Source of the DNA: a virus
Lineage: Duplodnaviria; Caudoviricetes
Direction: 5' to 3' (one strand)
Virus record (IMG/VR): IMGVR_UViG_3300001765_000047
Coordinates: 1 to 54,581 of that record
DNA: 54,581 nucleotides
The notes beneath the pieces were generated by a model. It made no database searches, was not told the DNA's origin, and was given only the letters and a program-made list of their open reading frames with translations. Below, piece after piece: positions 4,805 through 43,204 of the stretch; the first letter of the stretch is position 1, and each line of letters opens with the position of its first letter. The position numbers and the translations under genes were made by a program.

Positions 4805-4812
4805 GTCACGAC
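4805..4812 (-). promoter_or_regulatory. Putative late promoter element GTCGTGAC-GC-TACTTT
   Basis: Intergenic copy of the recurrent motif, followed by a -10-like hexamer. Confidence 0.7.
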
Positions 4813-4816
4813 CAAA

Positions 4817-5728
4817 TCAACCCAGGCTCGAATGCGAGATTCCAGCGCCGCTGCCCGAGCCACTCCAGTCGCTGGTCGTATTCCAGCCGAATGACCACCA
4901 GCTTGCAGACATGAATGTGGCCTCAAAATAGGCGTTTGCCCTGACCCTCGGCTCCAGCACGGAAACCCCAGCCGGTCGGTTGGTGTTGATCATGGGGGTA
5001 ATCGGTGCCCACCTGATCGGCCTGGCCGACGTGGGCTGAATCAGGTTGCGACCAATCGTCACCCCGTCCTTGATTTTGTGGTGCCCGGACAGCTTGGAGC
5101 CACTCAGCGAGAAAATCAGCCTCCACGGCTCTTCGATGAACACATGGACGGGCAGCGCATCATGGATCGCTCGCTCAATAGCAAAAGCGTTTGACCTTGG
5201 CCGGATGGTTTCAGTGATGATCAGATCGAGGTAGTCGGCATCCTGCATCCCGTCCATCCGATAGATGCCGAAAAACATACCCCAATAGTCCAGCCAGTCG
5301 GCCTCTGCCTTGTGCAAGTACACCTGGTCAATGGCAGCCGGTATTGCATCCGCCGCATCCTGCACGCTTGCCGCATAGGCGCTCACCATTGCCAACAGAA
5401 CAGACCGGTGCGCCATCACGGTGTTGGTTTGGCCGTTGCTTTTGGCTTCGCTGCCATCGACCAGCACACAGGCGTGCAGCGAGAGCACATCCGGGTTTAT
5501 GCTCTCGACCGTCACGCCAGCCAGACTCAGTGCAGCGGCAACACTCCCAACCGTCCCGGATGCCAGCGAAACATCAGCAAGCGCAGCGCCAGACAACGCC
5601 TTGACAGTGAGGCGACTAGATGAAATTGACCACGTTATGCCACCGGCATGGGCCAGGGTGAATGCAGCGACAGCGTCCGGGTCACGGTTAAATGCGCCGT
5701 AAAGATGATTCAGTAACTTGTAGCGCAT
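4817..5728 (-). CDS. Baseplate wedge protein (P2 gpI/DUF2313-like)
   Basis: WLDYWGMFFGIYR..DADYLDLI..RPAGV motifs. Start moved to ATG 5728 (MRYKLL), directly after the J-like gene stop. Confidence 0.65.
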   Translation of the reverse strand: MRYKLLNHLYGAFNRDPDAVAAFTLAHAGGITWSISSSRLTVKALSGAALADVSLASGTVGSVAAALSLAGVTVESINPDVLSLHACVLVDGSEAKSNGQTNTVMAHRSVLLAMVSAYAASVQDAADAIPAAIDQVYLHKAEADWLDYWGMFFGIYRMDGMQDADYLDLIITETIRPRSNAFAIERAIHDALPVHVFIEEPWRLIFSLSGSKLSGHHKIKDGVTIGRNLIQPTSARPIRWAPITPMINTNRPAGVSVLEPRVRANAYFEATFMSASWWSFGWNTTSDWSGSGSGAGISHSSLG

Positions 5729-5730
5729 TC

Positions 5731-6507
5731 TCAAAACCCACTTAGGGTGATCGTCCCAGGAATCAGGTACTCGGACTGTCCGCACACGATATTTGAGTCA
5801 ATCGTCAGAGATGCAGCAAGCACGCCAGCCACGCTGATAATCCCGGTCACCAGCGCATCCGCTGTCAACGTCCCCCCCGGACTGACCAGGGAAATGGAAT
5901 AGGCAATCGCCGCATGGATTTTTGTGGCATGGGACGGCTCTGGCACCACGCCAGCATCAAACAGCAAAGACACGCCGAACGAGACAGCCCGCGAGGTGGT
6001 CGCCACGACGCGCACCTCGACCCCGGCAGGGCGATAGTTCTCAACGCGGCTCTGTGCAGCAGCCACCAGCGCAGCAGAGGCATTGCCAGCCGACCCACGC
6101 AGGTACAGGTTGACCATTCCGACAAATTCCACAGCGCCAACACCGGTGACATACTCCTGCACCACGCCGCCCGCATCCTTGACTGTAGCCAGCGCCGCCG
6201 CATATTTGATGGACTGCACCGTGCCCCTTGCCAGCGACTGCACGAACTGGATAAATCGGGTTTTTCTTTCAAGCTCCGACTCGTCGCTGTTGACGGGGAA
6301 GTCAAAGGCTTGATAGATGGAAACCGGGATCGCATCTTGCAGTCCCAACAGCATCTGCAAGTAAAGCTCTTCAATCTCGATGGCCGGAGACTCCATCAGC
6401 GTCCGGGCGACCGAGCCAACAGAAAAATCCGTGATCTGGCTCTGTGATGCCCGAGCCAGATTGATCATGGAACCGACAATACTGCGATGGTCTTTGATCT
6501 GGAACAT
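5731..6507 (-). CDS. Baseplate J-like wedge protein (short, 258 aa)
   Basis: ITDFSVGSVARTLME, DESELE.K.RF..FVQSLARGT and ENYRPAGV motifs. Confidence 0.8.
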   Translation of the reverse strand: MFQIKDHRSIVGSMINLARASQSQITDFSVGSVARTLMESPAIEIEELYLQMLLGLQDAIPVSIYQAFDFPVNSDESELERKTRFIQFVQSLARGTVQSIKYAAALATVKDAGGVVQEYVTGVGAVEFVGMVNLYLRGSAGNASAALVAAAQSRVENYRPAGVEVRVVATTSRAVSFGVSLLFDAGVVPEPSHATKIHAAIAYSISLVSPGGTLTADALVTGIISVAGVLAASLTIDSNIVCGQSEYLIPGTITLSGF

Positions 6508-6509
6508 TT

Positions 6510-7133
6510 TTATCCTTGAATTTCTACCTGGAGAGGGAGTGCCGAACCGTCGGATACGACAGCCGTCAAGGCAACAACAATGGCATCCCCCTTCATGCTG
6601 GCCTTCCCGTCTTCTACTGACTTGACGCGGGGGTCACGAAGAACCGTCTCTTCGCAGAAACGAAGGGCCAGCAGCGCAATGTTAAAGTCGGTCTTGCGCC
6701 CTTTGAGGCGGTGCGCCATATTGCCGTACCGTGGGTGAAACCACAGGCTACCGAGTTCGTTGGTCAGCCGATGGTTGAGCGACTGGACGAGATTCGGAAT
6801 CCCTGATGCCAGCGACAAGCCACCCGACTCGTCCGCCACCATTCGCCCGTTGGTCAGCAAAACATCGATGCCGAATGCCTTTTCAGGGGAAACACCGGAC
6901 TGACTGGATACCGCGCTGGACGGGACTTTGATCGGCGAACCGTACAGGAGTACTCGACCTGTAGTCAGGCCGATGTGGTTGGTGTCGCCCGTCAGGTATG
7001 GTGGATGAAGGTCGTTCAACCAGACGATTTCAGGCCAGCGCGAGGCATCCTGGAGCACGCGAAACGCCAACCGCTGCAAAGTGTCGCCATACTCAACCCG
7101 GACAACACGCCATTGTGTTTTTGAGTCAAGCAT
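6510..7133 (-). CDS. LysM plus gp25/GPW-like sheath-initiator baseplate protein
   Basis: N-terminal VEYGDTLQRLA..W.EI..LN (LysM-like); C-terminal GIPNLVQSL..RL..G.L.FHP.YG..DPRV (gp25-like). Confidence 0.8.
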   Translation of the reverse strand: MLDSKTQWRVVRVEYGDTLQRLAFRVLQDASRWPEIVWLNDLHPPYLTGDTNHIGLTTGRVLLYGSPIKVPSSAVSSQSGVSPEKAFGIDVLLTNGRMVADESGGLSLASGIPNLVQSLNHRLTNELGSLWFHPRYGNMAHRLKGRKTDFNIALLALRFCEETVLRDPRVKSVEDGKASMKGDAIVVALTAVVSDGSALPLQVEIQG

Positions 7134-8331
7134 GGATGGTTACCCCTGATTGAAGCCGATATGCATAGCCACTCAGAGCGACAGGGTCGATGTCCGCTGT
7201 AATGTCGAGCCTTTTCACGTCCAGAATGGCGACAGCAGCATCCTGGCTTTTTGTGATGGCCGGTGCCGCGTCAACCAGCCCGGCAAACGGATTAGTTCCT
7301 GCCACCGTCGTCACGGACGCTGGACTGCCGCCCGCCGTGCTGGAGCAGTTGGATGCGCCATACAGGTCACCACCCCCAGGGGAGGCGGCCAGCATGGCAT
7401 CGGCAAACCCGTTACTAAGAACGCAACTCAGGTTTGAGAATGCACCTTTGATCTGCATTAACTCAGACTTGGCATAGGCCGGGATAGTGGCTACAGCAGC
7501 GGCAGCCGTCCACATGGTGGTCGCCGTGGCACTGAGTTCTTTGGCGACATTCACGACCGCATACTGCGCTGCGGTGATTGTTGCTTTGGCCGCGTTGGCC
7601 GTTTTGATGATGTCCTGCGCCATGGTGATTGCAGGCAAAAACGTCTCCTTGGTCAATTTCAGTAAGTCGTTGCCGAATCCACTGATAGTTTGCGTCAAGC
7701 TCCCAAGCTTGCCCTGAATCCCCTGTAGGAATCCAACGGACACATCCATCGAGGCAATCGATGTAGTGGTCAGTTTTGCAAGCCTCTTTGCTTCCAGCCG
7801 GTCAAATGATCCGTCGTCTGCGATGTCGGAATCAAAGAATATGGGCTTGGTGGCCTTGTCGTTGGTGACCGTCATGGAGAGGTTGTAGAGCAGCAAAAGG
7901 GGATTCGACTTGCTGCGCTTGAGGACAAACTGCATCGGAACAACGTCGGCCACATAGTCGCCGTTCAGCGGGTCAATGACCACCAGCCGGACAAGTCCAG
8001 GGTCTGTCGAGTTTGCGATAGCCTCGCTGCGCAGTTGGTGCCACTTGTGGACAAAGCTGTCGCGCAGGGTTGTGAACCTCTCGATGCCGTCAGGGCGACC
8101 GCCAGACCCCCAGCCGGTGTTGCCGGAGATAACGAGCGATGTAAGGCCGCGACCGAATGAATCAACCCAGGCACCATCCAGCGTGTTGACCGCAGATATT
8201 CTGGACGGTTCAGTCCGCGTCAATTCCTCCGGCTTGATTGGCAAAACCATGTAGCCAATCAAGTCGGTGCCATTCATCAAGGCAAGCGATATTTGCAGGT
8301 ATCGCTGGCTGGTTGGTTGGGTTGTAGCCAT
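7126..8331 (-). CDS. Baseplate/tube-initiator-like virion protein, 401 aa
   Basis: LPIKPEEL..RISAVNTLDGAWVDSFGRG..ISGNTG tube-fold-like N-terminus; helical C-terminus; overlaps the next baseplate gene. Confidence 0.55.
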   Translation of the reverse strand: MATTQPTSQRYLQISLALMNGTDLIGYMVLPIKPEELTRTEPSRISAVNTLDGAWVDSFGRGLTSLVISGNTGWGSGGRPDGIERFTTLRDSFVHKWHQLRSEAIANSTDPGLVRLVVIDPLNGDYVADVVPMQFVLKRSKSNPLLLLYNLSMTVTNDKATKPIFFDSDIADDGSFDRLEAKRLAKLTTTSIASMDVSVGFLQGIQGKLGSLTQTISGFGNDLLKLTKETFLPAITMAQDIIKTANAAKATITAAQYAVVNVAKELSATATTMWTAAAAVATIPAYAKSELMQIKGAFSNLSCVLSNGFADAMLAASPGGGDLYGASNCSSTAGGSPASVTTVAGTNPFAGLVDAAPAITKSQDAAVAILDVKRLDITADIDPVALSGYAYRLQSGVTIHA

Positions 8332-8345
8332 TCCCGCATGGTCGT

Positions 8346-8353
8346 GTCACGAC
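8346..8353 (-). promoter_or_regulatory. Putative late promoter GTCGTGAC-AC-GACCAT-GCGGGA-ATG (leaderless)
   Basis: Motif ends 14 nt before ATG 8331 and contains the TGA stop of the upstream gene. Confidence 0.7.
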
Positions 8354-9477
8354 TTGGCAGCAGCCCGGCTGGCCGCCATGCTGGCCTTGGCGATAGCCAT
8401 AAACGCGTCGTACTTGGCCGGGTCAATGCCGGTGAAGGGAAGCCAGCGTCCGCGACAATGGGGGTGTTGGGCACCCGCCGCAATCCACCACATTTCGTCT
8501 GGATCGCGGTCGTAGAGCTTGCCGTCAATGCGTTTTTTTGGCGCGCTTGACCGCCCGATGTTGGTCTTGCCTGGCCATATCTCGGTTTCCCCGTCCTTCT
8601 TTGGTTTGGCCGGGTCAACCACGGTCATGATGCGCCCGTTGATTTTGTGGCACCAGTCGCAGACACCTTTGTACTGCTCAAGCCGCTTCATCTTTTCTCC
8701 CGGCTTGCTGGCCGCCACAACACCCTGCGCCGCGTTCTCGGACACCTCCGTGATAGCGATTCGCCGCCAGTCGCGGTTAGCCGTGGCGTATTTGTCGAAC
8801 AGCTTAGTCTGAATGTTCTCGATCTTTCCCCCCAGCATGACCGCCTGCTGGTGCTCCAGCACAATGTCCCGGATGCCGGATTTCATTTTGTCGCCCATAT
8901 CGACAATCGCCTCGGCGCAGCGCACGCGAGCGAAGCCGATCATGACCTCAGTGAGCTTGGTAACCGGCAGGCCCATTTCAATCGCCGCCGGTACGCTGGC
9001 GGGGAGTAGGGCGGCAATGCCAGCCGCGACTGCCGCGATGGGCGGGTTGGCAGCAAGGCCAGCCTCGATCTGGCCCAACAACGTGGACTTGACCGATACC
9101 CAATCGGCCATGCTGGCGGCCCACTTGGGTGACCAGTATTCCTGTAGCAGCCACTCGACCATCATTGACCAGTCCTCGGGCAGCCACAGCGCGCGCGGCT
9201 TGGCGAGCAGGTAGGCTTTCCAGGCATCAATCTCGACCTGCGTCCAATGCACCGGAGCCTCGGGCATCAGTGGGAGTTGCTGGGTTTTGATGTGGGGCGC
9301 ACCATGATCGGCCAGCCACCAGGCCAATGCGTCCTTGAGTGACTGGATGTGCGCCTGGCCGACGTGGGTGAACGCCTCGACCAGATCGGCCAGGTAGGGC
9401 GAATCAAAAGGGAGCCAAATATCGTGTTCGTGGCTGGGCTTGATGGCCTTGCCGAGGTAGGTTCCGTGATCAATCAT
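8347..9477 (-). CDS. MuF/SPP1 gp7-like head morphogenesis protein, 376 aa
   Basis: RDWRRIAITE, CDWC..INGRI and HPHCRGRW motifs. Confidence 0.7.
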   Translation of the reverse strand: MIDHGTYLGKAIKPSHEHDIWLPFDSPYLADLVEAFTHVGQAHIQSLKDALAWWLADHGAPHIKTQQLPLMPEAPVHWTQVEIDAWKAYLLAKPRALWLPEDWSMMVEWLLQEYWSPKWAASMADWVSVKSTLLGQIEAGLAANPPIAAVAAGIAALLPASVPAAIEMGLPVTKLTEVMIGFARVRCAEAIVDMGDKMKSGIRDIVLEHQQAVMLGGKIENIQTKLFDKYATANRDWRRIAITEVSENAAQGVVAASKPGEKMKRLEQYKGVCDWCHKINGRIMTVVDPAKPKKDGETEIWPGKTNIGRSSAPKKRIDGKLYDRDPDEMWWIAAGAQHPHCRGRWLPFTGIDPAKYDAFMAIAKASMAASRAAAKS

Positions 9478-9491
9478 CCGGCCATGATGTG

Positions 9492-9499
9492 GTCACGAC
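9492..9499 (-). promoter_or_regulatory. Putative late promoter GTCGTGAC-CA-CATCAT-GGCCGG-ATG (leaderless)
   Basis: Motif ends 14 nt before ATG 9477; no SD. Confidence 0.75.
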
Positions 9500-9531
9500 A
9501 CGCTGGCAATGGCCGCCGTGACTTTAATCTG

Positions 9532-9539
9532 GTCGTTAC
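9532..9539 (+). promoter_or_regulatory. Variant late promoter GTCGTTAC-AG-CACTGT-GGCGGC-ATG
   Basis: One mismatch to the motif, with the same 14-nt spacing to ATG 9554 of the GIY-YIG gene. Confidence 0.6.
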
Positions 9540-9553
9540 AGCACTGTGGCGGC

Positions 9554-10339
9554 ATGAACAAAACATGCTGAATTTACCTGATCACTTGCACAAAGCCCAA
9601 TGGGGATAAGGTGTTTTATGCGGGCCAATCGTGCGATTGCACACGCAGGCGGCAGGAGCACTTCGGGGCACTCAGAAGAGGTGATCACTACAACCAGAAA
9701 ATGCAGCGTGCATATACCAAATATGGCAAAGAATGCTTTACGTTTGAAGTTGTGGAACGCTGTGAAACTTGGGAGCTTGGTGATAGAGAGCGGCCATGGC
9801 TTGATAGATTTGCAGGAAAAGAAAATAGCTTCAATATTGCAAAAGACCCAGAAAAGACAGCACTCGGGCTGAAGCACAGTGATGAGACAAAAAAACTGAT
9901 GTCAATCTCAAAGACAGGCAAGAGGCATACAGACAAAACGAGACTCCTTATCGCCGAACTTCAGCGAGGGAAGAAGCGTGGCCCGTGTTCTGACGAGAGG
10001 AAAAGGAAAATTGGCGAGGCCCAAGTAGGCGAGAAGAATCATTCATTTGGCAAGACTGGGTTTTCGCACCATAGAAGCAAGCCAGTTATTGCGACAAAAA
10101 TTGACGACGGCTCGATCCGTGTTTTTGGCTCTTCATTTGACGCAGAGCGATCCGGATTCTCACAACCAAGCATATCCGGAGTCTGCAACGGCAAGTGGAA
10201 AACCCATCGTGGCCACTATTGGAGGTTTGCAACTGCCCAAGAGATTGCAGATCACAATCCGGAGACGCTTGCGATTGCGGCAGAAACCTCGTCCTTAAGC
10301 AAGGCTTGCGCTTTTTCAGATACCATCTTGACAATGTAG
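9554..10339 (+). pseudogene. GIY-YIG homing endonuclease with NUMOD3/NUMOD1-like DNA-binding repeats, interrupted by TGA at codon 6
   Basis: From ATG 9554: MNKTC*IYLITCTKPNGDKVFYAGQS..R..EH..L..G.HYN..MQRAYTKYG..F.FEVVE. TGA 9569-9571 replaces the G of GIY and is in frame with track ORF 9611..10339. KHSDETKKLMS and RHTDKTR repeats follow. Confidence 0.8.
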
Positions 10340-12772: not shown

Positions 12773-12845
12773 GCCAAAATCCTTTTTAATTACATTTCAA
12801 GCGGTTGATGCCGCGTCTCACTCAAGTATTGCTTGACGCATGGGG

Positions 12846-13070: not shown

Positions 13071-13076
13071 GATGTT

Positions 13077-14270: not shown

Positions 14271-14278
14271 ATTGATTC

Positions 14279-22372: not shown

Positions 22373-22386
22373 TCCCATATTTGGCA

Positions 22387-22394
22387 GTCACGAC
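22387..22394 (-). promoter_or_regulatory. Putative late promoter GTCGTGAC-TG-CCAAAT-ATGGGA-ATG
   Basis: Intergenic; motif ends 14 nt before in-frame ATG 22372; heads the fibre cluster. Confidence 0.7.
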
Positions 22395-29159: not shown

Positions 29160-29198
29160 TTTTTTCTCATAAGAGTTGCAATGACTTCCAATACTTAT

Positions 29199-29206
29199 GT
29201 CACGAC
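29199..29206 (-). promoter_or_regulatory. Putative late promoter GTCGTGAC-AT-AAGTAT
   Basis: Intergenic, immediately downstream of the sheath terminator and upstream of the tube gene. Confidence 0.75.
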
Positions 29207-29222: not shown

Positions 29223-29251
29223 AAAAGCGCCCGGAGAACCGGGCGCTTTTT
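29223..29251 (-). terminator. Rho-independent terminator after the sheath gene
   Basis: AAAAGCGCCCGG-(4-nt loop)-CCGGGCGCTTTT perfect stem with T-tracts on both strands. Confidence 0.85.
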
Positions 29252-31338: not shown

Positions 31339-32169
31339 TTAATAATCTCCTAAAGTAGATAACACATCAGTAAAAAATCCATACCCCTGGGTCACCGCGA
31401 CCGCCTGCTGGAAGCCAAGGCGCATCACGGTCTGGTAAATCGGCGCGCTCATGGACTGCATGTCCTCCGAGTCCTGCACCGACTGCACCTCGACCATGTT
31501 TAGCCCCTGTTCTTCCAAAATGCCCAGATTTGCCGCAATCACCGCCTTAAGCGCCCGCCGCAAGGTGTTGCGCTCTTCGGCATTGAGTGACCAGACCGAA
31601 ACCTCCAGAGAGGTGCTCTCAAGCCACCCTTGTGATTCGACCCACTGGTCTCCATCAAATGCGTCCTGCGCCACTTGGTCGCCAAGGCCATGCGCTACCG
31701 CCTGGCTATTGCCAAATAAGACTGTCACGACCGGGAAAGAACCGCCCTGTGTGTAAAAAGGAATGGACATGACCGGGACGGTCTGGCTGCTGAGTGTGAT
31801 CAGCCCGCGCTGGATCATGGCGTGCAGCGTGACATCGATGCGCTCGCGCACAAGCTCCTGGGCATCGACACCAAGGTCGGCAAAGGTTGATGCTGGCGTG
31901 ACCGCAGCAACAGTACCAGGCCGCCAGACACCCGCAGATGCCTCGTCAAATATGGCGTAGTGGTAAGGCGTTCCGTTGACGAGCAGCCGCGCATCAGTCA
32001 GGAACCGCTCGCTGCCGTCATGCACCAGGTAGGCCGCCGGGTCAAAGGCACCGCTGATGTCGTTGGTTTCCTTGCGCAGGATGCGCCAGCGCGTCTCGCC
32101 CGCCGCTGGCTGCACGATGAGCCTTACAGCGTTGCCGCACCCGATGGGCTGTAGTTGATTGAATCGCAT
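31339..32169 (-). CDS. Tail completion/terminator-like protein, 276 aa
   Basis: Between capsid and sheath; FPVVTV and EVSVWSLNAEERN.L motifs; FN3-like N-terminus. Confidence 0.6.
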   Translation of the reverse strand: MRFNQLQPIGCGNAVRLIVQPAAGETRWRILRKETNDISGAFDPAAYLVHDGSERFLTDARLLVNGTPYHYAIFDEASAGVWRPGTVAAVTPASTFADLGVDAQELVRERIDVTLHAMIQRGLITLSSQTVPVMSIPFYTQGGSFPVVTVLFGNSQAVAHGLGDQVAQDAFDGDQWVESQGWLESTSLEVSVWSLNAEERNTLRRALKAVIAANLGILEEQGLNMVEVQSVQDSEDMQSMSAPIYQTVMRLGFQQAVAVTQGYGFFTDVLSTLGDY

Positions 32170-32183
32170 GATGCCATCGTGCC

Positions 32184-32191
32184 GTCACGAC
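32184..32191 (-). promoter_or_regulatory. Putative late promoter GTCGTGAC-GG-CACGAT-GGCATC-ATG (leaderless)
   Basis: Motif ends 14 nt before ATG 32169; directly after a terminator. Confidence 0.78.
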
Positions 32192-32193: not shown

Positions 32194-32221
32194 AAAAAAA
32201 CCCGCACAGTGGCGGGTTTTT
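32194..32221 (-). terminator. Rho-independent terminator closing the capsid operon
   Basis: AAAAACCCGC-(8 nt)-GCGGGTTTTTTT on the minus strand. Confidence 0.85.
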
Positions 32222-32244
32222 CAAGGACACAATTTAGAGAGAAG

Positions 32245-32454: not shown

Positions 32455-32476
32455 TTTTTCATTTCCTTGATCCTTT

Positions 32477-32505: not shown

Positions 32506-32521
32506 ATGATTCACCGCCGGG

Positions 32522-34030: not shown

Positions 34031-34073
34031 TGGATTTTCCTAAAGTTTAAATTTGTGAAAGACCTGAAATGGT

Positions 34074-34712: not shown

Positions 34713-35587
34713 GGAGTTTTCCTTTTCAAATCTGCTAAAAATCTCGCTGCCATCGCCAGGGCATTTGCCGGGGTGATCCCCATTGATGCGGAGGTGAAAT
34801 CTGCGAGCGACTTCAAAATCTTGATGTCTGCAAAATTACTGTCACGACCGGCCAGCGCCTGCTTGTTTTTTGTGCGCCGCAGGTTGCGCGAGAGGTGCTC
34901 TGTGACCTCTTCCTGCGTATAAGGCTCGTCGTCAAGCGACTGTCGGCGCATGGCACCACCGCCCGTGAGTGAGGCTGAGTCGGTGCTGTAACTGGCCTCC
35001 AGCGCCTTGCCAAGGACAAAGCAGCCCATGGATTTGCAAAAGGTTCCCACCGGTGCCGTGCTGACGGTGCCGATGTGCTGATTGATCTGGGCAGAAGCCA
35101 GCGCGACGTTTGTCCAGCGCACCTTCTGAATGACGGTCACGGCCCGGTTGGTCGCCGGATCAACTTCCTGCGACTTCGCCAGGGTAGAACCGCCGATTGA
35201 CGGATACCAGCGTTTCGGGGGGGAGAGTTCGGTCAGGGACGACCAGACCATGTTGGCATTGCGTGCCAGGTCACCGGTGCCGCTGAAAAGCTGCGCCTTG
35301 ACGAACGACCGGGCATCGCCGATGTCCACCGCGACAGGGAAACCAATCTCAGCCTCCACGCCTTCCTTGGTGCCGCGCCGCAGCAGGCTCAAGTGGTCAA
35401 TGTCAACATTGCCATTCTGGAGATAGAGCGAGGCCGACTCGGCCAGGGCTTTTGCCAGGACACGCTCGCCTTGGCGGTCGATGCCCTCGTTGGATGCTTC
35501 AAAATAAATGAAGCGGTCAGCACCATCCGCGACGGGGGTCGCCTTGAACAAATCGGCATCTAGGGTGATGAAGCTGGGGTCTTGCAT
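34709..35587 (-). CDS. Prohead protease, 292 aa
   Basis: ASNEGIDRQGE, GNVDIDH, EIGFP, FVKAQL, SIGG and TNVAL motifs of HK97/herpes-fold phage proteases. Confidence 0.8.
   Translation of the reverse strand: MQDPSFITLDADLFKATPVADGADRFIYFEASNEGIDRQGERVLAKALAESASLYLQNGNVDIDHLSLLRRGTKEGVEAEIGFPVAVDIGDARSFVKAQLFSGTGDLARNANMVWSSLTELSPPKRWYPSIGGSTLAKSQEVDPATNRAVTVIQKVRWTNVALASAQINQHIGTVSTAPVGTFCKSMGCFVLGKALEASYSTDSASLTGGGAMRRQSLDDEPYTQEEVTEHLSRNLRRTKNKQALAGRDSNFADIKILKSLADFTSASMGITPANALAMAARFLADLKRKTP
34841..34848 (-). promoter_or_regulatory. Putative internal late promoter GTCGTGAC-AG-TAATTT for scaffold/capsid genes
   Basis: Within the protease 3' end, about 130 nt before the scaffold start, with a good -10-like hexamer. 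Confidence 0.55.
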
Positions 35588-35601
35588 GACGCAAGAATGC
35601 T

Positions 35602-35609
35602 GTCACGAC
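35602..35609 (-). promoter_or_regulatory. Putative late promoter GTCGTGAC-AG-CATTCT-TGCGTC-ATG (leaderless)
   Basis: Motif ends 14 nt before ATG 35587. Confidence 0.78.
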
Positions 35610-35658
35610 CTCCAGAAACGACAAAGCAGCGCGGATAGATCGCCAAGGAGGTGCTTCA

Positions 35659-36072: not shown

Positions 36073-36117
36073 CAGGAACTCCGGTAAATTTTGAGATTAA
36101 ACTGATGTGACCATAAG

Positions 36118-36125
36118 GTCACGAC
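36118..36125 (-). promoter_or_regulatory. Putative late promoter GTCGTGAC-CT-TATGGT-CACATCA
   Basis: Intergenic; near-identical to the copy at 43197. Confidence 0.78.
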
Positions 36126-36134
36126 CGTGGCAAG

Positions 36135-39100
36135 TTAAAACATCGAACCCTGCTGCTTATCCAGCATCCGCTTGCTGATTGCGCCAGCGATGCCTGTGTC
36201 ATCAAGCCCCCCCATCGGGTCAAGCATCATCTCGCGCAGGGCGTATTTCTTTTGAAGCCTGCGCAGCGCCGTGCGCTCGGATTTGTGATCGGATGCCAGG
36301 GTGTACACCGACACGTCGTTTTTTTGCCCGAGGCGGTGGATTCGCGCACTGCGTTGGCCGTGGGCCATGGCAGTATCCGGAACGTCATGCTGGCAGAGCC
36401 AAGTTCCGCGCTGCAAATTTTGGCCGACAGCCCCCGCGTCCGAGCACACCATGATGTCCGCCTTGGCATCGCCCGCCTCGGGCTGGAACAGCGCCCGCTT
36501 TTTCGCCTTGTCCTTTGCTGAGTCGCCTCCCGTGATGCTGGTCACCTTGTGGCCTTTGGCCTCCAGCGCCTTGATGATCTGCGCCACAGCCGCCCGGTTG
36601 TGCGCAAACACCACGCCGGGCTGGCCCTTGTGCTTGTCGGCCAGTTCCAGCATCTTGTCGATCTTGGAGTTGCCTTTCTCGGATGAATTGATCACCCGCT
36701 TGACAGCCGACTCCTTCATGATGCCAGCCGACTCGGCGATGCCCTTGGCAATAGCCTCATGCTGGTCGTCTGGCACGCCTTCAAACGATGACGGGCTGAG
36801 AGCTTTGGCTGATTCCACATCCACCTTGCCCGATGCCTTTGCCGCAGCCAGGCGCGCCATGGTCTTGTCGATGCCGCCTATCGCCTCTTTTTGGTGGTCA
36901 GACAGCGGCACGGTGATATTCTGATAGTCAGCCTTCACGTCCGGAGTGATGGTGTTGCTGATGCCGTAGCGCGCCATTTCGCGCTTGAGTCCGGCCTTTG
37001 CCGCCAGGGTGTCGCCGCCATAGGAACGCATGAACGCCGCCCGGTCGGGGTAGCGCGACCTGTCCATTTTCTCCAAGACAGAATGAATTTCACTGTTGTG
37101 ATGCCAAATCCCATGCGCCAAATAGTTATGGAAAATAGGCACCGTCAGGTCGTAAATATCTGCTGCGTCTTGCTTTATGATTGCGGTTATCTTGTTATAA
37201 AGGACGTTCCATGAGAGATGGCATGACAAAGAAGATGCGGGCGATTCGAGAGCTTCTTGATTCGCATCGTTCTGACATTGAAGTATGGGTTCAGCAGGGC
37301 AGAACCCTTGAACAGATGGGAGATGATCTCGGCGTGAGTTACGGAACAGTGCGCAATTACTGCATTCGTAACTCGATCCCGTACAACACGAAGCGCGGCT
37401 GGCGTTTTGGGTCAAACATGGGTGAAGAACATCACAGTTGGAAAGGTGGCCGTCATGTTGCTCCTGATGGTTACGTCTATGTATTGGCAAAGAACCACCC
37501 GAATGCAAACCGTCAAGGGAAAATCCGCGAACACAGGCTTGTGATGTCGAATATTCTTGGCCGCCCACTAGACCCAAAAGAGGTTGTTCATCACATTGAT
37601 GGTGACAAGTCGAACAATCACCCTGATAACCTTGAATTGCTTTCAAGCAATGGCGATCACATTCACCATCATCACACCGGATGGAAGTGGTCTGAGGAAT
37701 CTCGCAAGAGGCTATCTGAGGCAACAAAAGGGAAGGTGAATAAACCGCATTCTCCTGAGCATAGGGAAAAGATGCGGGTTCTGATGACCGGGCGTGTGTT
37801 TTCTCCAGAAACGATTCAAAAGATGAAAGATGCCGCGAAGAATCGGAAGCCAAGAACCCAAGAGCAGAACATGGCATCGGCAGAGGCAATGCGGAAAGCT
37901 CACGCATTGAATCCTGATTGGGGAAAGAAGGCTGGCGAGGCAATGTCAAGGGCAATGAAGGCGAAACGGCAATCTCAGAGCCAACAGAAAGATCAGACAA
38001 GTGCATCCAGCCATCAGGAGTTAGAAATCTGTGATCAGCAGCAACCGTGATTATGAGATTTCCGACTGCCACCTCAAACATTGGCCTATTTTCTGACTTG
38101 ATAAACGGTATGGATGCCTCGACCACATGCACATTGCTGGTATCAACATCAAGCGCATAGACGAATGGCCCAATCCCAGAACATGCCCAATCCTGCACCG
38201 TTGCAGACACGCTCCGAACTGGATCGAATATCACCGAGTTAGGATGCAAACATGAATCATTTTTCACCGTGTCCCCGCTCATATTCGCCAGGTACGGGGT
38301 GTTTTCCGTCACGGCATCAATCACGTTGGCACGGGCAGAATTCTCCTTCCCGGCCCGGTTGAGCATCTGGTGCGCCTCGTCCACAAACGTGGCTCCGAAG
38401 TCCATGCCCTCCTTTTCCATGACAGACTTAGCCCATGCCTTGCGGTCATCTTGGCTCATGGCCGCGACCTGCTCATTCATCGCATCCTCGCTTATCCCAG
38501 CGTGCTGGGCACCCATGTGCAGCATATCTGCCCGGAATGATTCGTGCGTAACCACATTGAAGTGGTTGCTGGCATCCTTGTAACCCGCGATGCGCTCGGC
38601 CTGCGAAGCCCCCGGCTGGCAATGCCACTTGAACTGGCCCGCCTCCAGGGAACGCGAGGCCTCGGCACCATACTGGTCTTGCACAATGCTGGGCACCAGA
38701 TGCAGCGCCCGCTTGATTTTCCCGGTCTTGATCAGGTGCGCCGTCGCCCCCAAAGCAACGTTCGTCTTGCCTGAACCCGCGCCTAGACCGAGTACCACCC
38801 GTTTGTTGGCCTCCATCAACTTGATGGCGCGCTGCTGTGGCGAGAACTTTTCCCCGGACATCGACACGTTCCACAACTTTGTCGGCTTGCCCGGCTTGAA
38901 GTTCTGCCCCACCACCGACATCATCCCGGCGATTTTCTGCTCTGCCGCATGGCCCAGCGAGAAACGCTCGTCGGCCCCGAGTTTTGGCGTTTCGTGCTTT
39001 TCCGGCTCGTCGCTTGGGCCAAACATATCGCCGCCGTCATCCGTCGAGAAGAACCCCATCTGCGCCTGCTCGAACGCCGCCTGGGCCTCCTTTTGCGCCT

Positions 39101-42100
39101 CGATCTTGTCCGACACCGACCCGCTGGCGTACTTGCCATTGATGCGCTCGCGTAGGGAGTCGATCAATTCCTTTTCCTTGGCCTGGCGCGCCGCCCGCGC
39201 CTCGGGGTCAACAGCATCAAGATGGTTCAGCCCGCCCTGGATCGTGGTCTTGCCAACCTTGAGTGGCGACTTCGGATTGAGTTTGTTGTGGGCATCCGCA
39301 AAGCCAGACACGACCTGCGAGCGAACCAAGTCCTGAGTGGACGATATGGCCTTGGCTGGACTACCCATGATGCCGACGTACTTGTTCCAGTCCAGACCCG
39401 CCGCGTTGACCTGTTGCGCCAAATCATCGCGCTTGGCCTTCCACGAGTGCCAGTCCGGGTTGATCGATTCCTCGCCGAACATATCGATAGAGGATTTCTC
39501 TGGCTCGTTTTTCTCAGTATCGGCCAGGTCGGCCTTTAGTCCGTCAGCGCCCGCGTCCTTCTTGCCGACATTGGATTCCCACCACTTGCGCAGGCCGGTA
39601 CGTTCCTGCGGGGTCAGGTCGCCGATTGGCTTAAACGCCGCCACACCCTCGGGCGTTGCAGACAGCGACCGGTGCAGCGCATCAACCGACTTTTTATCGA
39701 CCTCGAAGTTTTGCCGGTGCAGCGCGCTGGTGCCCGGCCCGTAGTTGGATGACACGAAGTCGTCGGCCATTTTCTCGAATGATTCCTTGAGCGAGTCGAT
39801 AGGCTTCATCTTGCCGCCCGCACCCTTGAGTGGAGCCACCTCGTCCAGCGCCGCCCGGTAAGCCGCAGGATCGCCAGCCTTGGCAAAGAAGTCGCTGGAT
39901 TGAATGTCGGCCAGAATGTCCTGTAGCGCGCCGCCGTCAGCGACCCGGCCACCGACGTAATCACGCAGCGAAGCAGCCAGATCAGACCCAGGTTGAAACG
40001 GTTTTGCCAGCTTGACCGCCACACCCGGCTCGACGTGCATCGCCAGGTCAGGCCGATTGGCGAAGCCCTGCGGCAGCCAGCCGTCCTCGTCCATGTCGCC
40101 CCGGATGATCGCCAGATTGCGCTTGATCTGTTTCAGTCCTTCCACATCGACCGGTTTTGCAAGACGGTCAAGCCCCTCTCCGGTGACCGTGGCTACCAAG
40201 TTGCCGCCCACGTCATCGAGTTTGTAGTCGCCCGACTTCAGGCCCAGGGCGTGCAGTTGAGTGATCGCCGCCTTGGCCTCGGTTTTCCCAAGCGACACCT
40301 CGACTTTGTCCTTGGCGCCCTGGCGCATCGCCATGACCAGCGCCGCATTGGCCTGAAGTTCGCCCGTGGCCTGCCCGAGGATGCGCTTCGCATCCTTGAC
40401 CGCCTCTCGCCGCCGGTGATTCAGTTCCTGGGCGTGCGCCAGGTCAAAGCCGTCCTTGCCGTCCGGCAGTTCGATATCGCTGGCCGCTTTTGCCAGCGCC
40501 TGCGCCTGGCTGACCGCAGCATCCTGCTTATCAGCCTGCGAGCCAGTGTGGTAATCCTCGACCCCCTGCTTGATGGCTTCGTAGTCGTCGGCCTGGTAAT
40601 CTCTGGCGATGCGCCGCGCCAGTATCTGCGCCGCCGCATTGATCCCGAGCACGTCCACCACCGACCTGTCGATCAGCGGCTCGCCGCCAACCGCCGTGCT
40701 GAAGGCGTTCAGGGAATTGAAAGCCCCGGCCCCGACGTGGCCTCCCAGCGATTCCTCCCCGCCCATCTTGTCGATTTCGGACAGCAGGCCAACAGCACCG
40801 ATGGTCTTAATGTCCTGCTCCATCTGTTTTTTAGCGCCAGCCTCCACCTCGGCATCCGACACCTCCAGCACATACGCCTTGGATTCGACAATTTTGGCGC
40901 TGGCCAATTCCATGCTCGCATGGCGCGCAAGTTGTTCCGCCATCTTGAGTTTTTTGCTGGCCAATACCAGCGCCGCCGCCTTGGTCGCATCCTCAAGCAC
41001 CCGCACCGATGGCTTGTGGGTTTCCGGGTTCGACAATTTGAAAGCATCAAGCTCTTTGCCGATATTCTCGGCCTCAACCTTCTGAGCAGCCGTTTTTTCT
41101 GCTTTTGCCGGGTCTTTTTGGGCACCGTGGACGGCTGTAAGCTCTTTTTCAACCACATCAGGGGTCAACCCCTGCTTTGCCGCCCGGTCGCCGTAGTCGG
41201 CTGAAAATCCCAACCCCGACGGTTTGTCGCTCACCGGGTCAAGGTCGGCGACCGAGATCACGTCGTCAGCCTTGGCTTGCAGCGGCATGTCACCCAGGCC
41301 CGAAGCCGCCAGGGCATCATGGTCGTTGAGTAGCATCTTGCGGTTGACGTTCACGGCATCCTTGGCGCGCTTGAACAGGTCAGCCGCGTGTTCGCGTTTG
41401 GCTTTCAGGATAGCCTCGTCGGACAGGCCCGCGCCCTCCATCTTGGACTCGTCGAACTCGGTGTCAGTCCAGCCCATAGCCTCAGACACGGTTTTGACGA
41501 ATTCCTCGCGCTGCTTTTTCATTTCCAGCTTGAGCTTGCCTTTTTCCTCTTGCTTTGCCCCGTGTATGCCGGATGCCTTGTCGGCCTCGGTCTGCGCCTT
41601 TTGCTTTTCCTGCCGCTCCTTTTGTTTGGCCGCAATGGACTCCTTGTAACCCTCGCCAGTCTTGACCGACCGCAACTTCAGGTGGTTCAGCGCGCCACCA
41701 GCGCCGCCGATCACGCGCATGGAACCGTCCGAGTGGGGCATGACCAGGATGGGTTGACCTTTTCCGCCTCCGCTATTTACGGTAATCCAATGGGCACCTT
41801 CAGGGATTGGCCCGTGCTCGGACTTGGCAAGCATTTCCTGGCCGAAGTCAAAACCCCCGGATTCGAGGGATTTGATCATGGCCGGTTTGTCGAACGTCGC
41901 CCGCGCCTTGGCGACGAACTCAGCGACCGGCATGGCCGTCACCGGCCCCAGGAACCGCAAGTCGTTATAGTGCCGCAGGAAAGCATCCACCGCATCGGCC
42001 TCGCTGCTGAAATTTACTAAAACCTTGTCCTCGTCGTAGCGGCCCCAATCGCCAGCCTTGCGCTGGTGAACCACATAGACCATGGGCGCATCCTCGACCG

Positions 42101-42446
42101 GCCCCAGGTACACATCGACGCTGTCCCCGTCAACACCCATGGTCATGCGCAAATAGCCGTAGGCGAACAGCATCTTGGTTTCCCAAGCCTTGCCATTGGG
42201 GTCAACGCCACGCCGTACCGACCCGGCCTCGTTCTCGATGCTGATGGTCATCCCGTTCCATGGCACTTTGCGCTTGGGGTAGTTGCCAGCCTTGAGTTGC
42301 GCCTCGGTGGGCGCGCTTGCCTTGACGAAGGAATCTGGCGGCTCACCGTTGAGCTGCGAGATTGGCCCGGCCTTGCAAAAGGAGTCGTAGTCAGGCTGGG
42401 CGTATTCCGGCACTTGGCCGATGGAGTCAAAGTCGAGTGAGGTCAT
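36135..42446 (-). CDS. Polyvalent protein: inorganic pyrophosphatase-like domain plus SNF2-family helicase (DarB-like architecture) containing an intein, 2103 aa
   Basis: N-terminal GNY.K..ISIEN..GS.R.G..YGY..G.DGD.VDVYLG..DEDKV; helicase motifs GAGSGKT, DEAH, SGDTVKN, VVFAH, SDAGAVGQNLQ and QRSARIHRLGQ. Confidence 0.85.
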   Translation of the reverse strand: MTSLDFDSIGQVPEYAQPDYDSFCKAGPISQLNGEPPDSFVKASAPTEAQLKAGNYPKRKVPWNGMTISIENEAGSVRRGVDPNGKAWETKMLFAYGYLRMTMGVDGDSVDVYLGPVEDAPMVYVVHQRKAGDWGRYDEDKVLVNFSSEADAVDAFLRHYNDLRFLGPVTAMPVAEFVAKARATFDKPAMIKSLESGGFDFGQEMLAKSEHGPIPEGAHWITVNSGGGKGQPILVMPHSDGSMRVIGGAGGALNHLKLRSVKTGEGYKESIAAKQKERQEKQKAQTEADKASGIHGAKQEEKGKLKLEMKKQREEFVKTVSEAMGWTDTEFDESKMEGAGLSDEAILKAKREHAADLFKRAKDAVNVNRKMLLNDHDALAASGLGDMPLQAKADDVISVADLDPVSDKPSGLGFSADYGDRAAKQGLTPDVVEKELTAVHGAQKDPAKAEKTAAQKVEAENIGKELDAFKLSNPETHKPSVRVLEDATKAAALVLASKKLKMAEQLARHASMELASAKIVESKAYVLEVSDAEVEAGAKKQMEQDIKTIGAVGLLSEIDKMGGEESLGGHVGAGAFNSLNAFSTAVGGEPLIDRSVVDVLGINAAAQILARRIARDYQADDYEAIKQGVEDYHTGSQADKQDAAVSQAQALAKAASDIELPDGKDGFDLAHAQELNHRRREAVKDAKRILGQATGELQANAALVMAMRQGAKDKVEVSLGKTEAKAAITQLHALGLKSGDYKLDDVGGNLVATVTGEGLDRLAKPVDVEGLKQIKRNLAIIRGDMDEDGWLPQGFANRPDLAMHVEPGVAVKLAKPFQPGSDLAASLRDYVGGRVADGGALQDILADIQSSDFFAKAGDPAAYRAALDEVAPLKGAGGKMKPIDSLKESFEKMADDFVSSNYGPGTSALHRQNFEVDKKSVDALHRSLSATPEGVAAFKPIGDLTPQERTGLRKWWESNVGKKDAGADGLKADLADTEKNEPEKSSIDMFGEESINPDWHSWKAKRDDLAQQVNAAGLDWNKYVGIMGSPAKAISSTQDLVRSQVVSGFADAHNKLNPKSPLKVGKTTIQGGLNHLDAVDPEARAARQAKEKELIDSLRERINGKYASGSVSDKIEAQKEAQAAFEQAQMGFFSTDDGGDMFGPSDEPEKHETPKLGADERFSLGHAAEQKIAGMMSVVGQNFKPGKPTKLWNVSMSGEKFSPQQRAIKLMEANKRVVLGLGAGSGKTNVALGATAHLIKTGKIKRALHLVPSIVQDQYGAEASRSLEAGQFKWHCQPGASQAERIAGYKDASNHFNVVTHESFRADMLHMGAQHAGISEDAMNEQVAAMSQDDRKAWAKSVMEKEGMDFGATFVDEAHQMLNRAGKENSARANVIDAVTENTPYLANMSGDTVKNDSCLHPNSVIFDPVRSVSATVQDWACSGIGPFVYALDVDTSNVHVVEASIPFIKSENRPMFEVAVGNLIITVAADHRFLTPDGWMHLSDLSVGSEIAVSPSLPLTLPRQPSFPNQDSMRELSALPLPMPCSALGFLASDSSRHLSSFESFLEKTHARSSEPASFPYAQENAVYSPSLLLPQIASCEIPQTTSIRCDDGECDRHCLKAIQGYQGDCSTCHHQCDEQPLLGLVGGQEYSTSQACVRGFSLDGLHSGGSLPIHRRNHQEQHDGHLSNCDVLHPCLTQNASRASCCTGSSYECSNCALFRNSRRDHLPSVQGFCPAEPILQCQNDANQEALESPASSLSCHLSWNVLYNKITAIIKQDAADIYDLTVPIFHNYLAHGIWHHNSEIHSVLEKMDRSRYPDRAAFMRSYGGDTLAAKAGLKREMARYGISNTITPDVKADYQNITVPLSDHQKEAIGGIDKTMARLAAAKASGKVDVESAKALSPSSFEGVPDDQHEAIAKGIAESAGIMKESAVKRVINSSEKGNSKIDKMLELADKHKGQPGVVFAHNRAAVAQIIKALEAKGHKVTSITGGDSAKDKAKKRALFQPEAGDAKADIMVCSDAGAVGQNLQRGTWLCQHDVPDTAMAHGQRSARIHRLGQKNDVSVYTLASDHKSERTALRRLQKKYALREMMLDPMGGLDDTGIAGAISKRMLDKQQGSMF
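37095..38252 (-). mobile_element. Intein (386 aa) inserted just after helicase motif III
   Basis: Starts CLHPNSVI; block B ITVAADHRFLT..GW..L..G; blocks F/G DIYDLTVPIFHNYLAHGIWHHN followed by Ser. Removal restores SGDTVKNDS-SEIHSVL. Confidence 0.92.
37211..38050 (+). CDS. HNH homing endonuclease with N-terminal HTH and NUMOD3-like repeats, antisense inside the intein
   Basis: WKGG..DGYVYV..HP..EHRLVM..LGRPL..EVVHHIDGDKSNNHPDNLEL; WSEESRKRLS, HSPEHREKM and FSPETIQKM repeats; SD AAGGA before ATG 37211 (track start 37181). Confidence 0.9.
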   Translation: MRDGMTKKMRAIRELLDSHRSDIEVWVQQGRTLEQMGDDLGVSYGTVRNYCIRNSIPYNTKRGWRFGSNMGEEHHSWKGGRHVAPDGYVYVLAKNHPNANRQGKIREHRLVMSNILGRPLDPKEVVHHIDGDKSNNHPDNLELLSSNGDHIHHHHTGWKWSEESRKRLSEATKGKVNKPHSPEHREKMRVLMTGRVFSPETIQKMKDAAKNRKPRTQEQNMASAEAMRKAHALNPDWGKKAGEAMSRAMKAKRQSQSQQKDQTSASSHQELEICDQQQP

Positions 42447-42460
42447 CCGTAAAGGATGCA

Positions 42461-42468
42461 GTCACGAC
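42461..42468 (-). promoter_or_regulatory. Putative late promoter GTCGTGAC-TG-CATCCT-TTACGG-ATG (leaderless)
   Basis: Motif ends 14 nt before ATG 42446. Confidence 0.78.
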
Positions 42469-42476
42469 AGGGATTG

Positions 42477-42605
42477 TGACCGCTTACGCCGGTCAGTCGT
42501 GCCCGTGGAACCATCCACTCACAGCCTGGTGATGCAGACTGATGTCAGGAGTCGAACCTGCTTTTCCTTACCCAACCTCGGCAAGCGAGGCGAACTCGAA
42601 TCGCC
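42477..42605 (-). ncRNA. Possible structured RNA with two T-loop-like hairpins
   Basis: Five short hairpins, including CAGG-TTCGACT-CCTG and GGCGA-TTCGAGT-TCGCC; no full cloverleaf. Confidence 0.35.
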
Positions 42606-42619
42606 ATTCAAGCGGGATG

Positions 42620-42853
42620 TTACTCCGTAATGCGCTGCTTCGCCAGCCCAATAACCTGCGCCAGTTTGGCCCGCTCCATAACGAGCGTCTGGTACTCCTT
42701 CGCCACGGCATCATCGAACATGGCCGTCGGGCGCAACTGGTCGAGCCTGGCCGACACTTCGCCGTCACGCTCCACCGCCCGGTCGTGGATGCGCTGCTCT
42801 GCCGCGTTGGTGCGCGAGGTCAGCGCGGATAGATCGCCAAGGAGTTGCTTCAC
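42620..42853 (-). CDS. Hypothetical coiled-coil protein, 77 aa
   Basis: GTGA overlap with the upstream gene; helical composition. Confidence 0.6.
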   Translation of the reverse strand: MKQLLGDLSALTSRTNAAEQRIHDRAVERDGEVSARLDQLRPTAMFDDAVAKEYQTLVMERAKLAQVIGLAKQRITE

Positions 42854-43152
42854 GACGGCTTTTTATTGGACAGCCCGGCCAAAAAGCCTTTGTGTGTGGA
42901 GTGCGAATAACCAGCCCTGGCGTGAACAACTGGACTATTCACTCCACGCGAGAACCCCTCGACCTCATCAACATCTTGCCCATCCTTGTCATAAAGGGTA
43001 TCCCCTTGCTTAAGTTCAGAGTGATGCACGCCAAATTCAGCAGCGGGTCGCTTTTTCGATGCCACCCGTTTGTCGTCATGCGCCTGCACGACGCTGCCGT
43101 TCTTGCGAGTGAACGCATCAATGTGAGATTTGAGAAGGGTAAATTTGTCCAT
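42850..43152 (-). CDS. Putative head-cargo protein with KSH leader, 100 aa
   Basis: N-terminus LLKSHIDAFTRKNGSVVQAHDDKR; SD GGAG. Confidence 0.7.
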   Translation of the reverse strand: MDKFTLLKSHIDAFTRKNGSVVQAHDDKRVASKKRPAAEFGVHHSELKQGDTLYDKDGQDVDEVEGFSRGVNSPVVHARAGYSHSTHKGFLAGLSNKKPS

Positions 43153-43196
43153 GAATGGCTCCAGCAGGGATTGGTTTTAAGTGATGTGACCATAGA

Positions 43197-43204
43197 GTCA
43201 CGAC
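43197..43204 (-). promoter_or_regulatory. Putative late promoter GTCGTGAC-TC-TATGGT-CACATCA
   Basis: Intergenic; near-identical to the copy at 36118. Confidence 0.78.

Follow-up and report, generated by a model that had tools for sequence, protein, structure and literature searches.

A one-stranded octamer as a probable late promoter element shared by a clade of temperate myoviruses

What is the function of a short sequence that recurs along a phage genome, mostly at gene boundaries and always on the same strand? The question is raised by the octamer GTCGTGAC in IMG/VR record IMGVR_UViG_3300001765_000047, a single contig of 54,581 bp that we analysed over its whole length and call the window. 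Its minus strand carries the virion module of a myovirus (PHROGs, Pfam). A first-pass annotation of this DNA had proposed that the octamer belongs to a phage-specific late promoter which often gives leaderless mRNAs. Our results support this interpretation through the strand bias of the octamer, its fixed spacing to a hexamer, the lack of a -35 element, a peak of ATG codons 14 or 15 nucleotides (nt) downstream and conservation at orthologous genes. Thus, the octamer, two bases and a weak -10 box very probably form a late promoter that is common to a whole phage family, a clade of ~85-98-kb temperate myoviruses of Proteobacteria.

The window does not cover the entire genome. CheckV estimated a completeness of 60%, and open reading frames (ORFs) exit at both ends. 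In a comparison with the annotated coding sequences of Bordetella phage vB_BbrM_PHB04 (PHB04 below), we saw no equivalent in the window of the relatives' portal, terminase, replication and lysogeny genes, which means that about 40% of the genome is missing. The major head protein shares 70% identity with that of PHB04 and 57-68% with those of Pseudomonas phages Dolphis and Jeremy, Aeromonas phage ST4, Yersinia phage fHe-Yen8-01, Escherichia phage ECML-606-1 and Enterobacter phage phiT5282EW, all of which, like PHB04, have genomes of 90-96 kb. At the nucleotide level, a megablast search of 20 kb of the window against GenBank phages found no match.

We found 12 copies of the octamer in the window, every one of them on the minus strand (Table 1), against a mean of 1.5 in dinucleotide-preserving shuffles; the shuffle maximum was 6, and none of 100 shuffles reached 12. 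The earlier tally was thereby reproduced to the base. So was the claim that ten copies sit at gene boundaries, as 10 of the 12 are intergenic; at 8346, the upstream gene, which encodes 376 amino acids (aa), takes its stop codon from the TGA within the octamer. Two nucleotides 3' of the octamer follows the -10-like hexamer that had been described as mostly nAnnnT, with the hexamers as then listed: T occupies position 6 in all 12 copies, and A position 2 in 10. Exactly 14 nt 3' of the octamer, and 6 nt 3' of the hexamer, an ATG is present in half of the copies (8331, 9477, 22372, 32169, 35587 and 42446), as had been noticed before. These six codons each open an ORF of 263-2103 aa and coincide with the position where a sigma-70-type promoter would put +1. 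In five cases the ATG is the first start of the longest ORF, the exception being the copy at 22387, where an in-frame ATG (22378) lies 6 nt upstream. The remaining copies were said mostly to have a Shine-Dalgarno (SD) sequence in their longer leaders. This holds loosely: an SD-like GGAG stands before three starts (36072, 43152 and 34712) and a weak SD before the tail tube start (~29159), but 4768 has none. When positions 28000-44000 were scanned with the sigma-70 consensus, a single minus-strand match was obtained, fewer than in shuffles, and the motif sites were not picked up. On the plus strand, a one-mismatch copy, GTCGTTAC, with the hexamer CACTGT and an ATG 14 nt on, faces the 9492 promoter (9532-9553). 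It opens an ORF of only 5 codons and is probably a chance occurrence or a decayed divergent promoter.

The same arrangement recurs in related phages, of which our comparative tests together span about 35. In PHB04, 11 of 11 octamers are on the virion-gene strand, and the distance from octamer to annotated ATG is unchanged at gp5, the protease and the portal gene; gp5 shares the arrangement of the 8346 promoter, and that of the protease gene (35602) was also found in Dolphis, ST4 and the related records G018 and G019. Sense and antisense octamers number 10:1 in Dolphis, 3:0 in ST4 and 4:0 in fHe-Yen8-01. Around 75 major-head-protein homologues on viral contigs (1.22 Mb), oriented by the major head protein gene, we counted 220 sense and 9 antisense octamers. 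They were seen down to 43% head-protein identity and were absent from both loci at 26-27%. Over 24 whole related records, the octamer is distributed 246 versus 24 between the strands (reversed control, 42 and 41), and the full pattern GTCGTGAC-N3-A-N3-T occurs 215 times on the virion-gene strand versus 5 times on the other (reversed control, 0). Across whole genomes and in relatives, the strand frequencies are thus far from equal. Further GenBank relatives gave strand counts for the pattern of 13:0 (Touem01), 11:0 (Jeremy), 0:9 (ECML-606-1) and 0:9 (phiT5282EW). Among the 24 records, G022 and G024 alone have no copy of the pattern. G022 shares the virion module and SSB with the clade, but there the orthologous late genes lack the motif and start behind an ordinary SD.

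Aligning 190 unique sites defined the anatomy of the element. An A at +11 (181 sites) and a T at +15 (175 sites) supply the two bases typical of a sigma-70-type -10 box, A at -11 and T at -7 of the hexamer, numbered from the predicted start. There is no -35 element, as the 45 positions before the octamer (-45 to -1, counted from it) carry almost no information, and no TGn extension, since -15 is occupied by the octamer's C (or T) and -14/-13 are variable. Within the octamer, variation is tolerated most at the two ends, G1 and C8: GTCGTGAT occurs as an accepted variant (19 sense versus 1 antisense), and the first G comes next. The first-pass annotation had read the octamer as a quasi-palindrome. 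However, these tolerant outer positions, together with the strictly one-stranded use, argue against palindrome recognition, and we have abandoned that part of the proposal.

If the predicted start is correct, many of these transcripts would begin at the initiation codon itself. Counting only ATGs that open an ORF of at least 50 codons, 107 (~60%) of 173 unique full-pattern sites have an ATG at +14 (76 sites) or +15 (31 sites), compared with rates of 2.2% and 2.3%, respectively, at 15,000 random positions. The start codons at these two distances are ATG in 107 of 107 cases and never GTG or TTG, whereas 10 of 63 later starts are GTG or TTG. In addition, in a genomic island designated L139 (see below), an octamer is followed 14 nt later by an ATG that coincides, in an alignment, with the N-terminus of the gp72 protein family, which supports the +14 ATGs as true starts. 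What our data show is the anatomy of the sites, their conservation and their co-occurrence with other genes, whereas the transcription start, leaderless translation, late timing and the identity of the reading protein are inferred. Leaderless mRNA for low-copy virion proteins, as suggested earlier, fits the list of genes that such promoters would serve.

Which protein could read the octamer? Among the non-virion proteins of PHB04 (124 proteins, annotated coding sequences), only gp72, gp71 and SSB are present in all eight other complete motif-bearing genomes (G002, G003, G005, G018, G019, Dolphis, ST4 and fHe-Yen8-01). In PHB04, gp72 (173 aa) and gp71 (95 aa) are zinc-type proteins encoded by adjacent genes; family members measure about 170 aa and about 95-130 aa, respectively. 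Eight invariant cysteines and a CVSCYNRERE...GRNAKG block characterize the gp72 family, and an invariant H/C pattern typical of zinc ribbons the gp71 family. Searches of Pfam, PHROGs and PDB sequences found no match for gp72, and the gp71 profile gave only generic zinc-finger noise against PDB sequences. Profiles of gp72 (51 sequences) and gp71 (14 sequences) each match 21 of the 24 related records and miss the same three: G001, a 75% fragment in which the motif is present, and G022 and G024, in which it is absent. Among 50,697 GenBank phage records, gp72 homologues were confined to nine phages (10 records) of this head-protein clade. Furthermore, around 27 gp72 loci in alpha-, beta- and gammaproteobacterial genomes the pattern was detected 31 times (23+8) versus 1 control match. 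The position of the genes would also suit a factor expressed ahead of the late genes. In nine genomes, the first same-strand site met on going upstream from gp72 is at a distance of 17-35 kb, and gp72 itself has sigma-70-like -10 boxes in front of it. Downstream of gp71, sites resume after 0.1-24 kb in 8 of the 9 genomes, while in G005 none follows before the end of the record. The first-pass annotation had expected an activator or sigma-like factor encoded outside the window. The location is borne out as far as these candidates go, since neither family has a match in the window; the sigma-like part is less likely, as no sigma-70 region 2 domain was found in the 24 records. On the basis of these distributions, the gp72/gp71 pair may well be the reader of the motif, an assignment that we regard as tentative.

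Other candidates were tested and rejected. An AraC-type regulator (PHB04 gp48), an HTH_17 protein (gp109), a DksA/TraR-like protein (gp114) and gp104 are each missing from several motif-bearing genomes and cannot be universal readers; replication modules, too, are not universal among these genomes. Within the window, positions 47856-48485 (plus strand) encode a 209-aa protein with two repeats of the RNA polymerase alpha-subunit C-terminal domain (alpha-CTD; PF03118, E 9.6e-17). As a reader of the octamer it was discarded because it is absent from all 11 relatives compared. A collection of 5.8 billion proteins contained one other homologue (143 aa, 49% identity). Judged by its domains, such a phage-borne alpha-CTD mimic could interfere with host transcription.

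Taken together, we consider it likely that GTCGTGAC-NN-nAnnaT is a clade-wide late promoter without a -35, dependent on a phage factor and often leaderless, with gp72/gp71 as its likeliest reader. In such a promoter, the hexamer would act as a weak sigma-70-type -10, reduced to A(-11) and T(-7), and would be melted by the host RNA polymerase with a sigma-70-type factor. The phage factor would bind the octamer at about -22 to -15 and replace the contacts of the -35. Initiation would occur 7 nt after T(-7) of the hexamer; in six of the 12 window copies and ~60% of clade sites, +1 would then be the A of the ATG, giving an mRNA without a leader. The genes served would be those for virion, packaging, cargo and lysis functions, and terminators together with the many promoters would split the late region into short units. 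gp72 and gp71 themselves, which lie outside the incomplete window, would be driven by ordinary sigma-70-like promoters located upstream of the late block. A bolder version is more doubtful, and we offer it as a possibility: gp72, with gp71, might represent a new class of zinc-binding transcription factor that retargets proteobacterial RNA polymerase to an 8-bp spacer element (-22 to -15), replaces the -35 contact and sets the start at the AUG, so that the late programme would be leaderless and the islands described below, with a gp72 copy of their own and the same promoters, would be satellites exploiting this switch in the way that P4 exploits P2.

Several observations weigh against this explanation. 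Two window hexamers lack the A at position 2 (CCAAAT at 22387 and TCTTAT at 31724), and two octamers fall within coding regions, 31724 in ORF 31339-32169 and 34841 in ORF 34709-35587. The sequencing runs that match window DNA are DNA runs of one study only, with no RNA run among them. In Morganella phage Mecenats66, exact copies of the pattern number zero and one-mismatch counts equal the control, yet this phage encodes homologues of both gp72 and gp71 and has only degenerate motif copies. The confidently predicted structure of gp72 (predicted local distance difference test, pLDDT, 85.5), compared as a whole model, has no recognisable DNA-binding or sigma fold: the best Foldseek hit in the PDB has an E of 2.4, hence above 2, and the best hit of a wide VIA search a Z of 3.0. 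Moreover, the link between gp72/gp71 and the motif is drawn from co-occurrence essentially within one clade, which shared ancestry could produce as well. Finally, G022 is more diverged in other proteins too, with seven virion proteins undetected there.

We therefore asked how other mechanisms would account for the same sites. A highly diverged phage sigma factor might read the octamer and A-N3-T in the manner of T4 gp55, with gp72 or another phage protein replacing sigma. The absence of a -35 and the minimal -10 would suit such a protein, and so would the placement of the octamer, which directly adjoins the -10 in the space that sigma region 3 usually occupies; an identical motif over hosts of three proteobacterial classes likewise fits a phage-borne specificity subunit. 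However, Sigma70_r2 (PF04542) was detected in 0 of the 24 related records by a search whose positive control was found in 10 of 14 known genomes, which makes an activator likelier than a recognisable phage sigma. In addition, no recognisable sigma-like fold is seen in the gp72 model, and the conservation of precisely A(-11) and T(-7) points to a housekeeping-type region 2. We consider a diverged sigma unlikely.

The other readings agree poorly with the fixed coupling to the -10 and with the ATG peak. Mycobacteriophage L5 stoperators are asymmetric, orientation-specific operators scattered through the transcribed region, and the octamer could be a similar repressor site that silences lytic genes in lysogens. 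Its many copies are oriented with transcription and lie in short intergenic gaps, and the phages are temperate, with integrases annotated in PHB04, Dolphis and ST4. But a roadblock needs neither a fixed 3-nt distance to A-N3-T, as kept for the A in 181 and for the T in 175 of 190 sites, nor ATGs at +14/+15 in 107 of 173 sites, and no other promoter is visible for these genes; a stoperator is thus very improbable. Even harder to credit is recognition of the 16-mer by host RNA polymerase alone, which would make the sites constitutive promoters independent of any phage factor. Although the -10-type A/T signature and the conserved sigma-70 common to hosts of three classes are in its favour, holin/lysis genes carry the motif in PHB04, ST4 and, in degenerate form, Mecenats66, where a constitutive promoter would be lethal for a lysogen, and the related record G022 lacks such sites before the same genes. 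The least probable of all, in our view, is an element acting in RNA or in DNA transactions, be it a processing or translation-enhancer signal or a site of methylation, packaging or recombination. Readthrough from upstream units would indeed transcribe the octamer, and many DNA methyltransferases are encoded in the clade. Yet with 14 nt between its end and the ATG, the octamer is too distant for SD-type pairing, and we take it to resemble, not complement, the 16S 3' region. Strand specificity, a coupled -10-like hexamer and a position after terminators are unexpected for methylation or packaging sites. The late promoter therefore remains our preferred interpretation.

The motif and the gp72 family also occur together outside complete phages of the clade. 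Two small islands with a gp72-family gene were observed, one on a Cupriavidus ulmosensis contig (L139, about 5800-19300) and one in Vreelandella massiliensis (L137, about 4900-11000); they contain an integrase and/or a P4-type primase and Rha/Ant-like regulators. The gp72 homologue of L139 is full-length (hhalign 99.8%) and a divergent second copy adjoins it. Divergent copies of GTCGTGAC flank the gp72 gene in L139, and a single divergent copy lies next to that of L137. A homologue of a clade tail protein (phrog_1015) is present in L139, and gp71 is absent. By analogy with known satellites, both islands are possible satellites of this phage clade. Mecenats66, for its part, contains the degenerate forms ATCGTGAT-GATAAT, GTCGTGAT-TTTAAT and GTAGTGAT-TAAAAT upstream of the gp14-like, protease and holin genes, and would be a useful natural variant for the study of site-factor co-evolution. 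A k-mer search for an alternative motif in G022 and Mecenats66 returned coding-bias words only.

The positions of the predicted promoters, hairpins and main genes are collected in Table 1. The hairpin at 32195..32222 was read from the sequence and then supported by its folding energy; a consensus scan did not list it. The ATG at 34712, downstream of the promoter copy inside the protease gene, opens a 212-aa protein, which is followed by the major head protein gene. That head protein is 87% identical to its G001 counterpart, while most other proteins shared with G001 are 27-58% identical; as far as sequence can tell, this appears to indicate strong mosaicism or an unusual constraint on the head protein. 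The polyvalent protein combines an InPase-type domain (residues 48-179) with an SF2 helicase, into which an intein splicing domain (PF14890, residues 1431-1784) is inserted. Elsewhere on the contig, the GC content, about 0.55 in the remainder, drops to 0.427 at 14001-16000, where tail-fibre-like genes are located (14279-16485), and genes between 12846 and 22378 have almost no homologues among the relatives. This region is probably an exchanged host-range cassette. A plus-strand block at 43599-48485 is marked by a very strong AT skew (0.28-0.29) and by zero octamer copies. This block probably represents an early or accessory region and codes for a DUF932 protein, two HNH/EndoVII-type nucleases and several orphans.

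Table 1. Predicted promoters, hairpins and main genes of the window, ordered by position; promoter positions span octamer to hexamer.
Feature	Position	Strand	Octamer start	Hexamer	Predicted +1	Gene, leader or remark	Source
Predicted late promoter	4797..4812	-	4805	TACTTT		22-nt leader without clear SD; ATG 4768, 156-aa virion protein	
Baseplate genes	4817-8331	-					PHROGs/Pfam
Predicted late promoter	8338..8353	-	8346	GACCAT	A of ATG 8331	Leaderless; 401-aa baseplate/virion protein	
Predicted late promoter	9484..9499	-	9492	CATCAT	A of ATG 9477	Leaderless; 376-aa Mu-F-like head protein	
Predicted late promoter	22379..22394	-	22387	CCAAAT	A of ATG 22372	Collagen-like tail fibre protein	
Tail tube gene	about 28737-29159	-					PHROGs/Pfam
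Predicted late promoter	29191..29206	-	29199	AAGTAT		Leadered; upstream of tail tube gene (start near 29159)	
Strong intrinsic-terminator-like hairpin, 12 pairs	29223..29250	-				After sheath gene, directly upstream of 29199 promoter	
Sheath gene	29275-31068	-					PHROGs/Pfam
Octamer copy inside ORF 31339-32169	31716..31731	-	31724	TCTTAT		No A; doubtful or weak promoter	
Predicted late promoter	32176..32191	-	32184	CACGAT	A of ATG 32169	Leaderless; 276-aa PHB04 gp14 homologue	
Terminator-like hairpin with U-run	32195..32222	-				Directly upstream of 32184 promoter; -14.9 kcal/mol, z -4.08	
Major head protein	32522-34030	-					PHROGs/Pfam
Promoter copy inside protease gene	34833..34848	-	34841	TAATTT		114 nt upstream of ATG 34712	
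Head maturation protease	34709-35587	-					PHROGs/Pfam
Predicted late promoter	35594..35609	-	35602	CATTCT	A of ATG 35587	Leaderless; head maturation protease	
Predicted late promoter	36110..36125	-	36118	TATGGT	36103	31-nt leader with GGAG; ATG 36072 (137 aa)	
Polyvalent helicase protein, 2103 aa	36135-42446	-					PHROGs/Pfam
Predicted late promoter	42453..42468	-	42461	CATCCT	A of ATG 42446	Leaderless; 2103-aa polyvalent helicase protein	
Target of 43197 promoter	ATG 43152	-				Likely start; 100-aa ORF, GGAG before	Sequence
Predicted late promoter	43189..43204	-	43197	TATGGT	43182	Leadered; octamer 43197-43204	
WGR-domain protein, 1529 aa	49839-54428						PHROGs/Pfam

If our interpretation is correct, it defines the late transcription switch of a large and ecologically widespread group of temperate phages, whose hosts span Alpha-, Beta- and Gammaproteobacteria (Pseudomonas, Bordetella, Aeromonas, Yersinia, Escherichia, Cupriavidus and Methylobacterium). 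It would also provide a compact, portable promoter of 16 bp along with a candidate two-protein activator without a known fold. Leaderless mRNA is common in Thermus and rare in Proteobacteria; with dozens of leaderless genes per genome, these phages would make leaderless initiation directly testable in the latter. The motif further allows late operons and true start codons to be annotated throughout the clade. Searches by sequence or by phage names found no paper describing the GTCGTGAC motif among the matches inspected, those retrieved by sequence being primer uses or unrelated work, and the Mecenats66 paper contains neither the word 'promoter' nor the word 'motif'. The new element here would be the candidate reader pair gp72/gp71.

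How does this promoter compare with known late systems? The T4 late promoter is essentially a -10-region element (TATAAATA) without a -35, used by a modified host polymerase, and it needs a phage sigma (the gp55/gp33 system) and a sliding clamp. Unlike in T4, no sigma-70 region 2 domain was found in the 24 related records of the clade. P2 Ogr and P4 Delta are small zinc-binding phage proteins that activate several late promoters, and the site of Ogr is a dyad far upstream, near -55; in the clade, by contrast, nothing is conserved upstream of -22, and Ogr has no sequence relation to the gp72 or gp71 families (hhalign probability 0.38% and 0.88%). The P4 satellite has its own activator copy and helper-type late promoters. 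In a P4-like manner, the integrase-primase islands of the clade carry a gp72 homologue flanked by the motif.

The late promoters of the Thermus phage Lalka27a are closer. This phage is a distant relative, with a major head protein 31% identical to that of the window. According to its description, Lalka27a is a temperate phage with neither an RNA polymerase nor a sigma factor of its own, and its many mapped late promoters show a distinctive -10 and a single conserved upstream position but lack a -35; starts lie 6 nt after the -10, transcripts are mostly leaderless, and a phage factor was inferred by the authors (bioRxiv 10.64898/2026.04.20.719267). Lalka27a and the clade share a special -10, the absence of a -35 and leaderless starts, mapped in the former and predicted in the latter. 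The Lalka27a motif, however, is given there as TAGGGT plus a C at -25, with no octamer, and homologues of gp72 or gp71 were not detectable in Lalka27a.

The closest architecture appears to be that of the P1 late promoters. In P1 and, by our reading, in the clade, late genes are served by numerous scattered promoters and not by a single antiterminated operon, and in both a -10 without a -35 is combined with a short conserved spacer box, labelled '-22 region' in the annotation of the P1 record. The layout of the genes is similar as well: lpa is directly upstream of the late promoter LPpac in P1, and in G019 a site is located 112 nt after gp72-gp71. Activation of P1 late promoters requires host SspA; to our knowledge, P1 late mRNAs are not known to be leaderless. 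The Lpa protein itself is phage-encoded and, as described in two reports, an RNA-polymerase-binding activator (PMC10695390, PMC8198154). When P1 Lpa was compared with the gp72 and gp71 profiles, these two families only, no homology was found (hhalign probability 0.13% and 0.02%). The P1 box is a 9-bp inverted repeat (AAGTTACTT in LPhot, ATGTGACTT in LPpac), whereas the box of the clade is the asymmetric GTCGTGAC, and the gap between box and -10 is 4 or 9 nt in the P1 annotation but 2 nt in the clade. Since box sequence, spacing and candidate protein differ from both P1 and Lalka27a, the promoter described here would represent a variant that shares its architecture with both and belongs to neither family.

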